The position numbers were made by a program, and so were the translations under genes. Positions 2,794-54,914 of a stretch of DNA of 61,687 bases are shown here, piece by piece. Under the pieces are notes generated by a model that was not told where the DNA came from, ran no database searches, and saw only the letters and a program-made list of their open reading frames with translations. Source of the stretch: Promethearchaeota archaeon (lineage in GTDB: Archaea > Asgardarchaeota > Lokiarchaeia > Sigyniarchaeales > SOKP01); NCBI GenBank assembly GCA_016839745.1, contig JAEOTS010000028.1, positions 1 through 61,687 on the forward strand, given 5' to 3'. The first letter of the stretch is position 1, and each line of letters opens with the position of its first letter.

Positions 2794-3879
2794 ATGAAAG
2801 CTAGTCAAAATAACGAAAATATAGATATTGAATCTGATGGCAGTGGATATAGGCTACAGGGAAAGGGAGAAAAAGAGTTTTTAAATAAGTGCAGGTCTTT
2901 TCCAGATCTAGTAATAACATCTCATCCAAATTCCCTTCAAGAGGGTTTTGAATACTTTTTTCAAAAATTAGGTGCAAAAAGTCCGATGCAAATGAGAGGA
3001 AGGTCTGGAAGTCTTCGGTTCGTTATTGTATTTGCAAAGTATGGGCGCAAGCTAATGAAGGGAAGGAAAAAATCATATAAAGATATTGAGCCTTATATTT
3101 TGGATTTAGAACAAAACGGAAAATATACTACTAAATCTGAGGGACCAGAACTACTGAAAACATATCCGAATAAAAATTTATGGTCAGAGCTTCTAGATTA
3201 TGCTAAAAATAAATGGAATATTATTAAAATTGGTTTTACGGAATTACCTTCAGAGCTGATTTTTAGAAATAAAATGGTTTTATTTCGGCATGCTCTCGTT
3301 TTTATGCAAGAAATGAAAAAGGATAAAATCGATAAAGCTCCAGGAAAGGAAGCAGGTGATGAAACGATGCGTATTTATGCCGAATTGGGAGAAGCTGTTG
3401 CAGATATTGCAGAATGGCTTCGATCGAAAGGTATAAGATCTCAAGCAGTAAATCCATTAGGGGGTTTAGTTTGTACACCGCCCCTCGCTGGAAAAGCGGG
3501 TATGGGGGGACAAGGAAAACAAGGATGTTTAATTACACCTGAGTTTGGTCCAAGGCAGCGTTTAGCACCGATCTTTATTGAAGAAAAACTATTTGAATAC
3601 ACAGATAATAATGAGCATGAATGGATCGAACAATATTGCAGAACATGCGGAAATTGCCAAAAAAATTGTCCCGCTAAAGCTATATATGATGAAAAAGTGA
3701 TATCTATTGAAAATTTGCCTGGAATTGGAGCAATGAGAACATGTATTGATAAGGATAAATGTTTTCCATATTTCGGAAAAACAATGGGATGTTCAATTTG
3801 CATTAAAGTATGTCCATTTTCAAATGGTCCAAAGACTTATGAAAAACTGAAAAATTTAATTACTCAAAAAGAAAACTAA
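2794..3879 (+). CDS. Reductive dehalogenase/QueG-like cobalamin 2x[4Fe-4S] protein
   Basis: AGMGGQGKQGCLITPEFGPRQRL motif; CxxCxxCxxxCP and C..CxxCxxxCP; no Tat signal seen. Confidence 0.7.
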   Translation: MKASQNNENIDIESDGSGYRLQGKGEKEFLNKCRSFPDLVITSHPNSLQEGFEYFFQKLGAKSPMQMRGRSGSLRFVIVFAKYGRKLMKGRKKSYKDIEPYILDLEQNGKYTTKSEGPELLKTYPNKNLWSELLDYAKNKWNIIKIGFTELPSELIFRNKMVLFRHALVFMQEMKKDKIDKAPGKEAGDETMRIYAELGEAVADIAEWLRSKGIRSQAVNPLGGLVCTPPLAGKAGMGGQGKQGCLITPEFGPRQRLAPIFIEEKLFEYTDNNEHEWIEQYCRTCGNCQKNCPAKAIYDEKVISIENLPGIGAMRTCIDKDKCFPYFGKTMGCSICIKVCPFSNGPKTYEKLKNLITQKEN

Positions 3880-29672: not shown

Positions 29673-29729
29673 TTTTTTTTTTATTTATTATAGAAGAATA
29701 TCCATTATAATCCATTAGAGGTGAGATGA

Positions 29730-30086
29730 GTCAAAAAACTAAAATTTAAAATATCAATTCCAATAAAAAGTTTGCAAAGCGGAAAGGACTACGAACTTGA
29801 GATTAAGGACGATGCAAATTTTATTGAAGCATTAGCCTTAGTTGATAAAATAGAGAGAGAAAGTTCAGAGAACAAAATTTTTCCTCTCTATGACGGGTAT
29901 ATCCACAATTATTTACAATTATTCGTAAATTTGGAAGACGAGACAATTTATGATGATGTTGGTTTATCCCCTTACGCTCCCGATGAACATGGTCTTTATA
30001 GAAAGTTCAATCCTATAAGAGAGGATATTAAATTCAATTTATTTCCTGACACGATTATTGAATTACAACAAGATGTTGGATGTTGA
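29730..30086 (+). CDS. MoaD/ThiS/ubiquitin-like protein ending Gly-Cys-UGA (possible Sec read-through to 30206)
   Basis: Frame open from 29730; beta-grasp-like pattern (YELEIK..NFIEAL..LQLFVN..TIIELQQDVGC); start codon unresolved. Confidence 0.6.
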   Translation, partial: VKKLKFKISIPIKSLQSGKDYELEIKDDANFIEALALVDKIERESSENKIFPLYDGYIHNYLQLFVNLEDETIYDDVGLSPYAPDEHGLYRKFNPIREDIKFNLFPDTIIELQQDVGC

Positions 30087-30190
30087 TGAGAAAAAGTGAA
30101 AAATAGATTGGATATAGGAACTTTTAAAAGGACGCTTATGGAGAAATACGGAAAAGAGAACGAAATATTTACTCACTATTTTAAATTAAA

Positions 30191-30275
30191 AAGGAATAAA
30201 TCTTAAAAAAGAATGAGATCTTCCAGAAAATGATAGTGGAAGATTAACAATAGGATAGTGTCCTTTATATTCCTT
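30191..30275 (+). promoter_or_regulatory. SECIS-like structured element
   Basis: ATGA-GATCTTCCA-GAAAATGATAG-TGGAAGATT-AACAA, side hairpin AGGAT/GTCCT, outer stem AAGGAATA/TATTCCTT; same layout as the element at 40674-40739. Confidence 0.5.
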
Positions 30276-30369: not shown

Positions 30370-30996
30370 TTATTTCTTTTGGGCAAAAATATATCTTAGG
30401 ATATGCGAATGTAGACCTAATTCTCCATGATTCTCTGCATCTTCTATTATTCCCGTTTCTATTACTGAATAGTCTTTAAAGTGCTCTTTTAAGTCGTTTT
30501 CTGTGAAATAATGAACCGGCCTCCAAGGTTTACTTTCGTAAGTATTTTTTTCGATCTGTTTTCCCTTTCCAAAACTTCTCTCCATATCAGAAAACACTAC
30601 AAAAAAAGCAAAACCCTTAGTCTTCAATTGCTTATAACATTTCTTCAAGAATGAAATTCGATCGTCCTTTAGAAATAAATGTAATACGTTAAAGCTGTAG
30701 ATACCATCGTATTTTTCATCATTAAAGGGCATATCTAATACTGAACCTTGAAAGAATTGAGTTTTGGGGTTGAAACTTTTTGCGATATCAATGGCAGATT
30801 CAGAAAATTCAATTCCGGCAACTTCTAAATTAGCATCTGTAAACAGTTTCGTATTTCGACCATAACCGGCCCCTGGAACCAATATACTGTTAAGCTCATG
30901 CTTTTTAAAAAGCTTTAGAGCGTAAATGGCGGTCGCACTCGGTTTTTCGCCCCAAATTTTACCACCATCTAAGAAACGCTTTTCCCAATATTCCAT
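30370..30996 (-). CDS. Class I SAM-dependent methyltransferase
   Basis: LVPGAGYGRN, GSVLDMPF. Confidence 0.87.
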   Translation of the reverse strand: MEYWEKRFLDGGKIWGEKPSATAIYALKLFKKHELNSILVPGAGYGRNTKLFTDANLEVAGIEFSESAIDIAKSFNPKTQFFQGSVLDMPFNDEKYDGIYSFNVLHLFLKDDRISFLKKCYKQLKTKGFAFFVVFSDMERSFGKGKQIEKNTYESKPWRPVHYFTENDLKEHFKDYSVIETGIIEDAENHGELGLHSHILRYIFAQKK

Positions 30997-31066: not shown

Positions 31067-31870
31067 TTATTCTTCTTTCAATTTTCGTCGATAAATCTCA
31101 ACTAAGGCTTTTATTGGCAAGATTGCATTGATATAAGTATATTCTCTATCTTTAACATCAGGATCGCTATTTTGAACTGCCAATAATTCCATAAGCTTTT
31201 GTACATGTTCAGTAAATCCCTCTGTCAGTTGATCGTAATATTTTCCACTAAAATAGGCATATGAAAACCAAGGCTCTAATTTGGAAAAATTAAAGTATTT
31301 GTCATATATTTCTTTAGCGGCATCAACATCGTCAAGGTGATCCTCAAAATCATCTAATAGCGGATTTAGTAAATCAAGTAAGAGTTTATACCTATATATA
31401 GTTGCTCGATAGGTTTGAATTTGTTTTTTATAGAATTCAATTAATTCTGAAGGATCGTCGGGGGGTGCTATATTTATGGGGCTATTCTCGACTACCTGCA
31501 GTAACTTACGGTTTTTACTAAATAATTTTGGAGGTATTTTTCCTTGTTGAGTTTTATCGCTTTTCCTTGATAAAATAAGACCATCCTTTTCCATCAACTT
31601 GAGATGTCTGGCTACCGTCGATTTACTTTGTTCTACCATGTTGCTTATTTGAGTTATATTAGCTTCATTATATATTTGTAAAATATTCCAAATGTCGAAT
31701 CTTAAATTATGTTTAGCAAATAAAAGAAACCAATTTTCTACAGTATAAATCTCTCTATCATTGAGATCGACTTTAATCTCTTCCCCACCCCGTAAACTTA
31801 TAGTATATCGCTTTTTATCGTCTACTTTTAATTTATCAGGTCTGACTCTTCGATCTTTTTCTTCAGACAA
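31067..31870 (-). CDS. ArsR-type winged-helix regulator
   Basis: ANITQISNMVEQSKSTVARHLKLMEKDGLI. Confidence 0.82.
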   Translation of the reverse strand: MSEEKDRRVRPDKLKVDDKKRYTISLRGGEEIKVDLNDREIYTVENWFLLFAKHNLRFDIWNILQIYNEANITQISNMVEQSKSTVARHLKLMEKDGLILSRKSDKTQQGKIPPKLFSKNRKLLQVVENSPINIAPPDDPSELIEFYKKQIQTYRATIYRYKLLLDLLNPLLDDFEDHLDDVDAAKEIYDKYFNFSKLEPWFSYAYFSGKYYDQLTEGFTEHVQKLMELLAVQNSDPDVKDREYTYINAILPIKALVEIYRRKLKEE

Positions 31871-40673: not shown

Positions 40674-40739
40674 ACCCCAACCTTAGCAAGGTTGTCCTTA
40701 TGTATCAACTATTTTTATACATAAGTCATCCAAAGGGGT
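40674..40739 (-). promoter_or_regulatory. SECIS element (eukaryote-like)
   Basis: ACCCC..ATGA-CTTATGTAT-AAAAATAGTTG-ATACATAAG-GA..GGGGT; AUGA begins 10 nt after the stop of a UGA-containing gene. Confidence 0.82.
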
Positions 40740-54843: not shown

Positions 54844-54914
54844 TGTTTGGTGAGATGTGGCTAACCTTCTAAAAGTAAATATCATTTATATTTTCAATTT
54901 ACTTTTTCCAAACA
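54844..54914 (-). promoter_or_regulatory. 3' structured element, non-canonical SECIS candidate
   Basis: Outer stem TGTTTGG/CCAAACA, 10-bp stem AAAAGTAAAT/ATTTACTTTT, loop with GAAAA; lacks an AUGA core. Confidence 0.5.

Follow-up and report, generated by a model that had tools for sequence, protein, structure and literature searches.

In Asgard archaea, selenoproteins have been identified through homology to known selenoproteins or to their Cys homologues, and five families were listed in a first survey (Mariotti et al. 2016, PMC4989117). The same kind of search later gave seven families, which are SelD, FrhA/VhuU, HdrA, FrhD/MvhD, Prx-like, AhpF-N-like, and DsbA-like proteins (Huang et al. 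2024, PMC11227280). The accessible part of a 2026 review gives 11 archaeal selenoprotein families, and the motifs in its prokaryotic table (UxxC, CxxU, CU, UxxU, and others) include no adjacent pair of selenocysteines (Sec-Sec) (PMC13188914). Here, we examined a gene on the plus strand of contig JAEOTS010000028.1 (assembly GCA_016839745.1) from a Promethearchaeota archaeon of the order Sigyniarchaeales, class Lokiarchaeia; the whole stretch of 61,687 nucleotides is referred to as the window. Sequence comparisons indicated that the product of this gene is very probably a true selenoprotein and represents a new family, which is designated Cys-Sec-Sec. The family shares with the known Asgard selenoproteins the decoding system and the class of Sec insertion sequence (SECIS) element carried by the 3′ untranslated region (3′ UTR), with an AUGA ... 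[G/A]A core. Unlike them, it belongs to a different protein family, carries an obligate tandem Sec-Sec, has no Cys homologues, and is absent from the published lists.

The predicted protein consists of a beta-grasp core of 118 codons (29730 to 30083, +), which was delineated with homologues, AlphaFold2, and structural matches and ends in Asp-Val-Gly-Cys, and a C-terminal tail (30090 to 30206, +). The last two codons of the core, GGA TGT (Gly-Cys, 30078 to 30083), are followed by two consecutive UGA codons (TGA at 30084 to 30086 and TGA at 30087 to 30089, +), which we read as Sec-Sec. The same frame then runs through 38 sense codons (30090 to 30203) to TAA at 30204 to 30206, and the tail forms two helices in the predicted model. 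An earlier note on this DNA had described this succession of Gly-Cys-TGA-TGA, 38 more sense codons, and TAA, which was confirmed directly in the sequence. The predicted selenoprotein is about 158 to 161 residues long.

The conservation of the UGA pair was examined in related genes. A protein search returned 84 homologues, and nearly all of the named ones were from Asgard archaea (Loki-, Hod-, Hermod-, and Promethearchaeota). In 74 of the 84 entries the protein ended exactly at Gly-Cys, and eight entries, called with genetic code 4, read Gly-Cys-Trp-Trp and then continued into the same tail. The DNA of 61 loci was taken from species-representative genomes; 57 of these extend to the UGA site, giving 58 loci together with the window. 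All 57 related loci reaching the site, and the window as well, carried Cys-TGA-TGA followed by a tail of 31 to 41 codons. In a codon alignment of 47 sequences, both positions were TGA in every orthologue (47/47) and never TAA, TAG, or a sense codon, and the codons before the pair varied synonymously (GGA, GGG, or GGT for Gly and TGT or TGC for Cys). Looking at the codon after Gly-Cys in homologues, as the earlier note had suggested, therefore gave TGA TGA in 58/58 loci, and homologues ending in Gly-Cys followed by TAA or TAG were sought and none was found. Among 1469 long open frames of the window's genome (32% GC), TAA was the stop codon of 1057 and TGA of 160. Because TAA dominates and yet the site stays TGA-TGA everywhere, real double stop codons are very improbable. 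A profile search of 400 Asgard genomes matched 137 of them, including 117 of the 134 genomes of the window's own family and some genomes of six related families within the same class, with no match in families outside these seven. All 150 matches listed, from the 137 genomes, contained two or three in-frame TGA codons. Five further genomes, of which four are single-contig assemblies, contained members that matched weakly (E values of 1e-11 to 1e-20); these kept Cys-Sec-Sec, and the Gly before it was replaced by Gln or Met. Two relatives lacking Sec had Val-Ser (P0106) and Ile-Thr at the site, and no SECIS was found with P0106.

Other forms of the motif were also observed. In a tandem paralogue (L042:3460-4000, L044, and L051; also P0089, P0093, P0094, P0100, and P0101), His-Ala-Asp-Sec-Sec stands in place of Gly-Cys-Sec-Sec, and this paralogue and the first gene use one SECIS, located about 600 nt past the UGA codons of the first gene. 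A further subfamily apparently carries Ala-Sec-Gly-Sec-Sec (P0088, P0090, and the three-TGA matches among the 400 genomes).

In addition, the read-through tail was compared with the core as coding sequence. Nucleotide entropies at the three codon positions were 0.59/0.43/1.09 in the tail and 0.72/0.41/1.27 in the core, and synonymous changes accounted for 44.9% of the differing codon pairs in the tail and 42.3% in the core (47 sequences in both cases). The other two frames of the tail contained stop codons in 47/47 sequences, and five tail residues (K122, R126, F147, H149, and Y150) were invariant. On the basis of the codon alignment, these results showed that the tail is under in-frame protein-coding selection.

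Two observations on UGA codons in the tail were made in individual orthologues. In L024 (near position 3395), tail codon 10 is a third in-frame TGA at a conserved tail Gly (Arg-Leu-Asp-Ile-U-Asn-Phe-Lys), which is either a tolerated extra Sec or the mark of a broken copy. In ten orthologues (L002, L004, L005, L006, L026, L027, L034, L038, L054, and L056), the tail stop codon is itself TGA and is found either no more than about 15 nt from the 5′ flank of the SECIS or within that flank. Within the same mRNA of these orthologues, UGA apparently stands for Sec 110 to 130 nt upstream and for stop beside the SECIS.

The SECIS in the window (30209 to 30270, +) is of the eukaryote-like Asgard type, with AUGA, a 9-bp helix, an 11-nt A-rich loop, an AA-C 3′ core, and a side hairpin. 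AUGA is located at 30213 to 30216, six nt past TAA, and its spacing from the first UGA is 129 nt. The main helix pairs 30217 to 30225 with 30237 to 30245 (9 bp, the first pair being G-U) and encloses the apical loop GAAAAUGAUAG (11 nt, 30226 to 30236). AACAAU (30246 to 30251) follows and leads into the side hairpin AGGA-UAGUG-UCCU (30252 to 30264), which has a 4-bp stem. The earlier note had described this hairpin in the same terms, from its AUGA six nt past TAA to AACAA and the side hairpin, and all of these parts were recovered in the sequence; the 8-bp closing stem that completed its description did not prove to be conserved, since RNAalifold gave no consensus outer helix. Elements of the same architecture were found 115 to 142 nt past the first UGA in orthologues, and in four loci the SECIS stands behind an intercalated second selenoprotein gene. 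In an alignment of 41 sequences without the window, 9 of 14 base pairs showed compensatory changes and 93.9% of cells paired, so the conservation with covariation that had been proposed as a check was present. None of 500 shuffles reached the observed covariation, and pairing in slid registers fell to about 50%.

The element was further evaluated with two covariance models. The first (R1), built from the orthologous elements with the window left out, scored the window copy at 71 bits (E = 3e-13) and also detected the SECIS of four HdrA-MvhD operons, one MvhD gene, one Prx-like gene, and FrhA in the same genome (12.6 to 31.9 bits). The second (R2) was built from seven SECIS of known genes in the same genome (HdrA-MvhD, MvhD, Prx, and FrhA). 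Over both strands of the 61.7-kb window, R2 gave two strong matches only, which were the candidate at 30209 to 30270 (35.9 bits, E = 1.9e-6) and the held-out Prx-like SECIS at 40678 to 40733 (−) (37.7 bits); the next match, not a SECIS, had 12 bits. The hairpin therefore did not score at background (12 bits) against a SECIS model, here one from its own genome (35.9 bits, E = 2e-6), an outcome that the earlier note would have taken as refuting. The element and the SECIS at 40678 to 40733 (−) have an equal layout and unrelated stem sequences, as had been noticed before. The 3′ core with AA in place of GA, also pointed out earlier, was present in the window copy and its close relatives, and most orthologues had GA. 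AA was found in three more SECIS-like hairpins of the same genome, two of them behind known selenoprotein genes, and the published Asgard motif [A/G]UGA_[G/A]A covers it (PMC11227280). The single-sequence folding energy of the window element was unremarkable (z = −1.33); the significance of the SECIS therefore rests on the covariance models and the covariation. Rfam at gathering thresholds reported nothing in the window and missed the accepted Prx SECIS too, so this silence is uninformative. R2 fell short of E 0.05 on a distant contig (L082), where an element consisting of AUGA, an 8-bp helix, GA, a side hairpin, and an 8-bp closing stem was nonetheless seen by eye 33 nt past the stop codon. 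By covariance scoring and covariation, the hairpin at 30209 to 30270 is a real, conserved SECIS.

The genome of the window also contains genes of the Sec machinery. SepSecS (322.6 bits) and an EFSec-like gene (228.6 bits) are located together on another contig, and several known selenoprotein genes are present. Of the two readings given in the earlier note, a new selenoprotein with Gly-Cys-Sec-Sec holds in its essentials in view of the conservation, the tail, and the SECIS. The other, in which an orphan SECIS and the 3′ remnant of a deleted selenoprotein gene lie behind a gene ending at Gly-Cys, is excluded by a read-through tail conserved in 137 genomes.

The start of the gene was examined separately. 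A Shine-Dalgarno-like GAGGTGA (29719 to 29725, +) was read from the sequence upstream of the gene. In most orthologues, GGTGA has equal spacing to the conserved N-terminal strand and a variable reading frame, as expected of a ribosome-binding site and not of coding sequence. The start had previously been put at 29718, which falls at this motif. A possible start codon is GTG in GTG AGA TGA (29721 to 29729, +), which would bring an extra in-frame UGA into the protein as codon 3. The codon-3 TGA is also found in L002, L003, and the code-4 gene calls P0004, P0005, P0008, and P0010 ("MRW"), and Leu takes its place in L001 (TTA), P0001, and P0003. The codon aligned with 29730 is ATT, the apparent start, in most other orthologues, ATG in L022, L030, and L033, and GTC in the clade of the window (GTG AGA TGA GTC in the window itself). 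Most orthologues have no canonical start codon ahead of the conserved N-terminal strand, and most have a stop codon 0 to 2 codons ahead of ATT AAA AAA, with GGTGA 6 to 9 nt upstream. The stop codon just before ATT, GGTGA upstream, and ATG at this place in three orthologues suggest that most orthologues may initiate at AUU. A start at ATG 29726 with a +1 shift on the A-run was ruled out, since the same frame of L003 stops after two codons.

Next, the structure of the protein was predicted from a 44-sequence alignment. AlphaFold2 gave a single-domain model (predicted local distance difference test [pLDDT] score, 87.3; predicted template modeling [pTM] score, 0.85) with a hairpin of two strands followed by a helix, three further strands, and, in the tail, two short helices. 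Foldseek found nothing in the PDB below E 1e-3, and many of its weak matches were ubiquitin-like or other beta-grasp domains. In an exhaustive structural alignment, SAMP1 of Haloferax (4hro_A) was the top match (Z = 7.3; root mean square deviation, 2.8 Å; 83/87 residues), followed by CysO (4n6e_B; Z = 7.0) and MoaD proteins (1v8c, 1vjk, and 6jc0; Z = 6.0). The ubiquitin/MoaD-like fold that had been called by eye is therefore borne out at the fold level. As modeled, the body of the selenoprotein is a beta-grasp, with the fold class established and homology not proven by Z scores of 6 to 7.3. SAMP1, CysO, and MoaD align to model residues 1 to about 118, and because the alignments cover these residues, Gly-Cys-Sec-Sec (117 to 120) would lie at the position of the carriers' C-terminal Gly-Gly. 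Sequence-profile searches of Pfam, NCBIfam, and the PDB gave no match for the Cys-Sec-Sec family.

Open reading frames (ORFs) within 3 kb of the gene were clustered and annotated in the 58 loci. The commonest order was the arsenite pump ACR3, HgcA-like fusion, HgcB-like ferredoxin, CxC protein, selenoprotein gene, ArsC, and YdjM. The HgcA-like fusion protein has 550 residues and combines a CpaM-like S-adenosylmethionine methyltransferase with an HgcA-like corrinoid domain; its NCBIfam matches (NF043039, 1e-50; NF040863, 5e-49) are both below the equivalog cutoffs. The HgcB-like ferredoxin has a Cys-rich tail, and ArsC is of the thioredoxin (pI258) type. In a second clade, ArsR-ArsR-ACR3 lies upstream and DGC, CxC, and ArsR lie downstream; in a third, ArsR-ACR3-CxC lies upstream and CDF and HD genes lie downstream. 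The CxC protein was present in 42/58 loci, HgcB-like in 24/58, ACR3 in 24/58, HgcA-like in 19/58, ArsR in 15/58, and ArsC in 13/58. At least one of ACR3, ArsR, and ArsC was found in 38/58 loci, and any of ACR3, ArsR, ArsC, HgcA-like, HgcB-like, DGC, and CxC in 48/58. The CxC protein (e.g., L010:2698-2967), which stands directly beside the gene in its 42 loci, has about 90 residues and an invariant CxC...W. Its predicted model (pLDDT, 91.7) is thioredoxin/glutaredoxin-like, with CxC at the start of helix 1 and TM scores of up to 0.70; its top Foldseek matches were thioredoxins and not ArsD, and there was no sequence match in Pfam, NCBIfam, or the PDB. In the window and its three closest relatives, the genes upstream are an SDR, a membrane protein, and an SDR, and an HgcA-like gene is located elsewhere in the genome of the window, at a contig edge.

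Two genes on the other side were also recorded, in the window locus as in its three closest relatives. A methyltransferase gene (30370 to 30996, − in the window) is convergent with the selenoprotein gene; among NCBIfam models, the one for the methyltransferase domain of the MduS selenoprotein scored best (5e-24, far below the cutoff), with weaker TehB, TPMT, and ArsM-type matches. Beside it is a gene for an ArsR-family helix-turn-helix regulator (31067 to 31870, −).

In the mechanism that we propose, the ribosome would translate the beta-grasp domain and then meet UGA-UGA at 30084 to 30089. The SECIS in the 3′ UTR would direct the archaeal Sec machinery, Sec would be inserted twice in succession, and translation would run on through the conserved 38-residue helical tail to UAA. 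The product would present an invariant Cys-Sec-Sec triad where MoaD/SAMP-type carriers have their terminal Gly-Gly. Three adjacent soft ligands (S, Se, and Se) are a good match for trigonal As(III)/Sb(III) or for Hg(II), and vicinal cysteines bind metal(loid)s in ArsD, MerA, and HgcB. The Cys-Sec (CU) motifs of HgcA, SaoL, SaoB, and MerT-type selenoproteins have been proposed as heavy-metal binders (bioRxiv 10.1101/2022.07.06.499078). Because of the soft-ligand triad, the vicinal-Cys precedents, the CU-motif proposals, and the ars/HgcA-like neighbors, a metal(loid) carrier is favored over a redox role, and the latter over a sulfur/selenium carrier. We give an even chance to the idea that a soft metal(loid), for instance As(III), Sb(III), or Hg(II), is bound at the S/Se/Se triad and exchanged with proteins encoded by the neighboring genes. 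The triad would pass the metal(loid) to, or receive it from, the CxC protein, the HgcA-like/HgcB-like pair, ArsC, or the ACR3 pump, and the protein would serve an ars/organometal operon as a selenium-based metallochaperone or a carrier of its substrate. A more specific form of this proposal, which is put forward tentatively and falls somewhat short of an even chance, is a dedicated selenium-based metal(loid) shuttle in Lokiarchaeia. Here, Cys-Sec-Sec would capture As(III)/Hg(II) and feed the HgcA-like methyltransferase or ACR3, supplying in trans the role proposed for the N-terminal Cys-Sec motif of bacterial HgcA. For such a shuttle to be made, one 3′ UTR SECIS would have to support efficient insertion of Sec at two UGA codons in immediate succession.

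Several points weigh against this picture, some against the selenoprotein assignment and others against the proposed function. Selenium incorporation is predicted from sequence, and a truncated product ending at Gly-Cys may also form. Among 84 plus 37 database matches, none carried Cys in place of Sec, which is unusual for selenoproteins. ARAGORN reported no tRNA-Sec, although only 11 tRNAs were found in the assembly. The only in-frame canonical start codon in the window, GTG at 29721, has UGA at codon 3. Structural Z scores of 6 to 7 can reflect a common fold only. The locus of the window and its three closest relatives are without ars/HgcA-like neighbors, and a search of the window's genome (89% complete) did not recover the CxC partner.

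The proposal that survives best beside a metal(loid) carrier is that Cys-Sec-Sec is a redox center, in the form of a selenenylsulfide or diselenide, which relays electrons with the CxC protein, e.g., to ArsC or to the HgcA-like/HgcB-like pair, and that no metalloid is carried. This is possible, with a probability clearly below even. The most constant neighbor, in 42/58 loci, has a thioredoxin fold with CxC at the N terminus of helix 1, 13 loci have a gene for thioredoxin-dependent ArsC of the pI258 type after the selenoprotein gene, and Gly-Cys-Sec resembles the motif of thioredoxin reductase. However, ArsC is found in a minority of the loci only, and Cys with two adjacent Sec residues exceeds the needs of a two-electron couple. 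In addition, redox selenoproteins normally have Cys homologues, whereas none was found here and the non-Sec relatives have Val-Ser or Ile-Thr.

Considerably less probable is a sulfur/selenium carrier of the MoaD/ThiS/SAMP type, in which activated S or Se would be delivered from Cys-Sec-Sec. SAMP1, CysO, and MoaD are the best fold matches, and the motif lies at the position of their C-terminal Gly-Gly; however, it is not a free C terminus, and 38 conserved residues follow it. Pfam gave no ThiS/MoaD match, no E1-like adenylating enzyme was found among the recurrent neighbor clusters of the 58 loci, and the neighbors are metal(loid) genes. The selenium-carrier role suggested in the earlier note thus found no support, given the internal motif, the lack of an E1-like partner nearby, and neighbors with metal(loid) and redox functions.

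Two further explanations concern the gene itself, and both are very improbable. The beta-grasp protein might end at Gly-Cys, with the tail as a separate small protein and the SECIS unrelated or vestigial, because most gene callers stop at Gly-Cys (the 74 database entries) and the third tail codon, six nt past the stops, is GTG in 41 of the 47 orthologues. Against this, five orthologues carry GTA and one carries TTT as the third tail codon, and in three orthologues ATG, GTG, and TTG are all missing from tail codons 1 to 12, which rules out independent initiation as the source of the tail. Moreover, the Glu-Lys ahead of the third codon is kept while its codons change synonymously, the two supposed stops are TGA without exception even though TAA is the preferred stop codon, and all loci of sufficient length carry a high-scoring SECIS at constant spacing. 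Near-cognate reading of the UGA codons as Trp, Cys, or Arg, or a lineage-specific code change, would fit the open frame with Trp-Trp obtained by code-4 metagenome pipelines, but TGA ends ordinary long frames in this genome and the tail beside the SECIS in ten orthologues, the SECIS class equals that of the HdrA, MvhD, FrhA, and Prx selenoprotein genes, and the Sec machinery is present.

The searches also revealed SECIS elements with other ORFs. In one locus, R2 gave a second strong match (L002:623-679, 42.5 bits), which precedes the family gene by about 2.4 kb. On contig C116 of G000 (L076, minus strand), a small zinc-ribbon-like ORF (CPxCGH ... CQNC) lies directly upstream of a SECIS at 187 to 245. 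This ORF, also found at L025:2170-2455, has four in-frame UGA codons at conserved positions (..U-LM.., G-U-N-U-V, and VP-U), and its own SECIS scored 27 bits with R1 and 35 bits with R2. In the genome of the window it is followed by a pyridine-nucleotide-disulfide-reductase-like gene, and in L025 it lies between the Cys-Sec-Sec gene and the shared SECIS. The zinc-ribbon-like ORF may represent one more new family with several Sec residues. On contig C37 of G000 (245 to 494; L077), a SECIS (R1, 27 bits) stands 7 nt past a short membrane ORF reading ...Gly-Gly-Gly-U-Pro-Lys-Pro-Cys. At 54844 to 54914 (−) of the window, where a non-canonical SECIS had been proposed behind a second Prx-like UGA gene, R2 gave no match at E values up to 10.

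NCBIfam release 20 contains no model for the Cys-Sec-Sec family, and the family is undescribed in the selenoproteome surveys of 2016 and 2024 and in the accessible part of that of 2026; it is a new family with a known decoding mechanism. Its unusual features are the obligate tandem Sec-Sec, the lack of Cys homologues, a beta-grasp in place of a thioredoxin scaffold, and the ars/HgcA-like context. Survey approaches based on known-family homology and Cys homologues are blind to this family, which occurs in most Lokiarchaeia and in about 87% of the genomes of the window's family. The invariant Sec-Sec raises the question of processive UGA recoding in an Asgard system that is thought to be ancestral to the eukaryotic one, and the gene neighborhoods link selenium in Lokiarchaeia both with the detoxification of arsenic and with organometal chemistry of the HgcA-like type. 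The 74 database entries truncated at Gly-Cys need correction. Distant members are found in closed single-contig genomes of the same order, and experiments may be possible if these are from cultured strains.

Finally, the family was compared with known systems. With SAMP1, CysO, MoaD, and ThiS it has in common the beta-grasp and a reactive motif at the end of the last strand, in the place of the carriers' Gly-Gly. There is no sequence similarity to these proteins, and whereas the carriers have a free C-terminal Gly-Gly, the Cys-Sec-Sec family has an internal Gly-Cys-Sec-Sec followed by a conserved two-helix tail of 31 to 41 residues. Because the motif is internal, Gly-Gly is missing, and no E1-like gene is nearby, the family, by its sequence features, is not a member of MoaD/ThiS. 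Thioredoxin reductase has a Gly-Cys-Sec-Gly redox tail that can form a vicinal selenenylsulfide. Gly-Cys-Sec is common to both, but in thioredoxin reductase, a large flavoenzyme, the motif is the penultimate pair of residues, whereas the Cys-Sec-Sec family has a second Sec, no flavin domain, and 38 residues after the motif; in its distant members, the thioredoxin reductase-like Gly is not conserved (Gln/Met) and Cys-Sec-Sec is. The arsenic metallochaperone ArsD uses the vicinal Cys12-Cys13 plus Cys18. The proposed principle is alike, in that three soft ligands, two of them adjacent, would take up As(III) and deliver it to a partner protein of the ars operon. Unlike ArsD, which has a thioredoxin fold and cysteines only, the Cys-Sec-Sec family is a beta-grasp without homology to it and lacks the Cys-Cys...Cys arrangement. 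The CU-motif organometal selenoproteins (HgcA with an N-terminal PCUGP, SaoL, SaoB, SaoC, and MerT variants; Haft and Gwadz 2022 preprint) have adjacent Cys-Sec and a heavy-metal or organometal gene context, and this setting is approached by most relatives of the Cys-Sec-Sec gene, which adjoin an HgcA-like corrinoid protein and an HgcB-like ferredoxin. The CU-motif proteins are bacterial, with in-frame bacterial SECIS, unrelated folds, and a single Sec, whereas the Cys-Sec-Sec gene encodes a separate archaeal beta-grasp protein with two adjacent Sec residues specified by a 3′ UTR SECIS.

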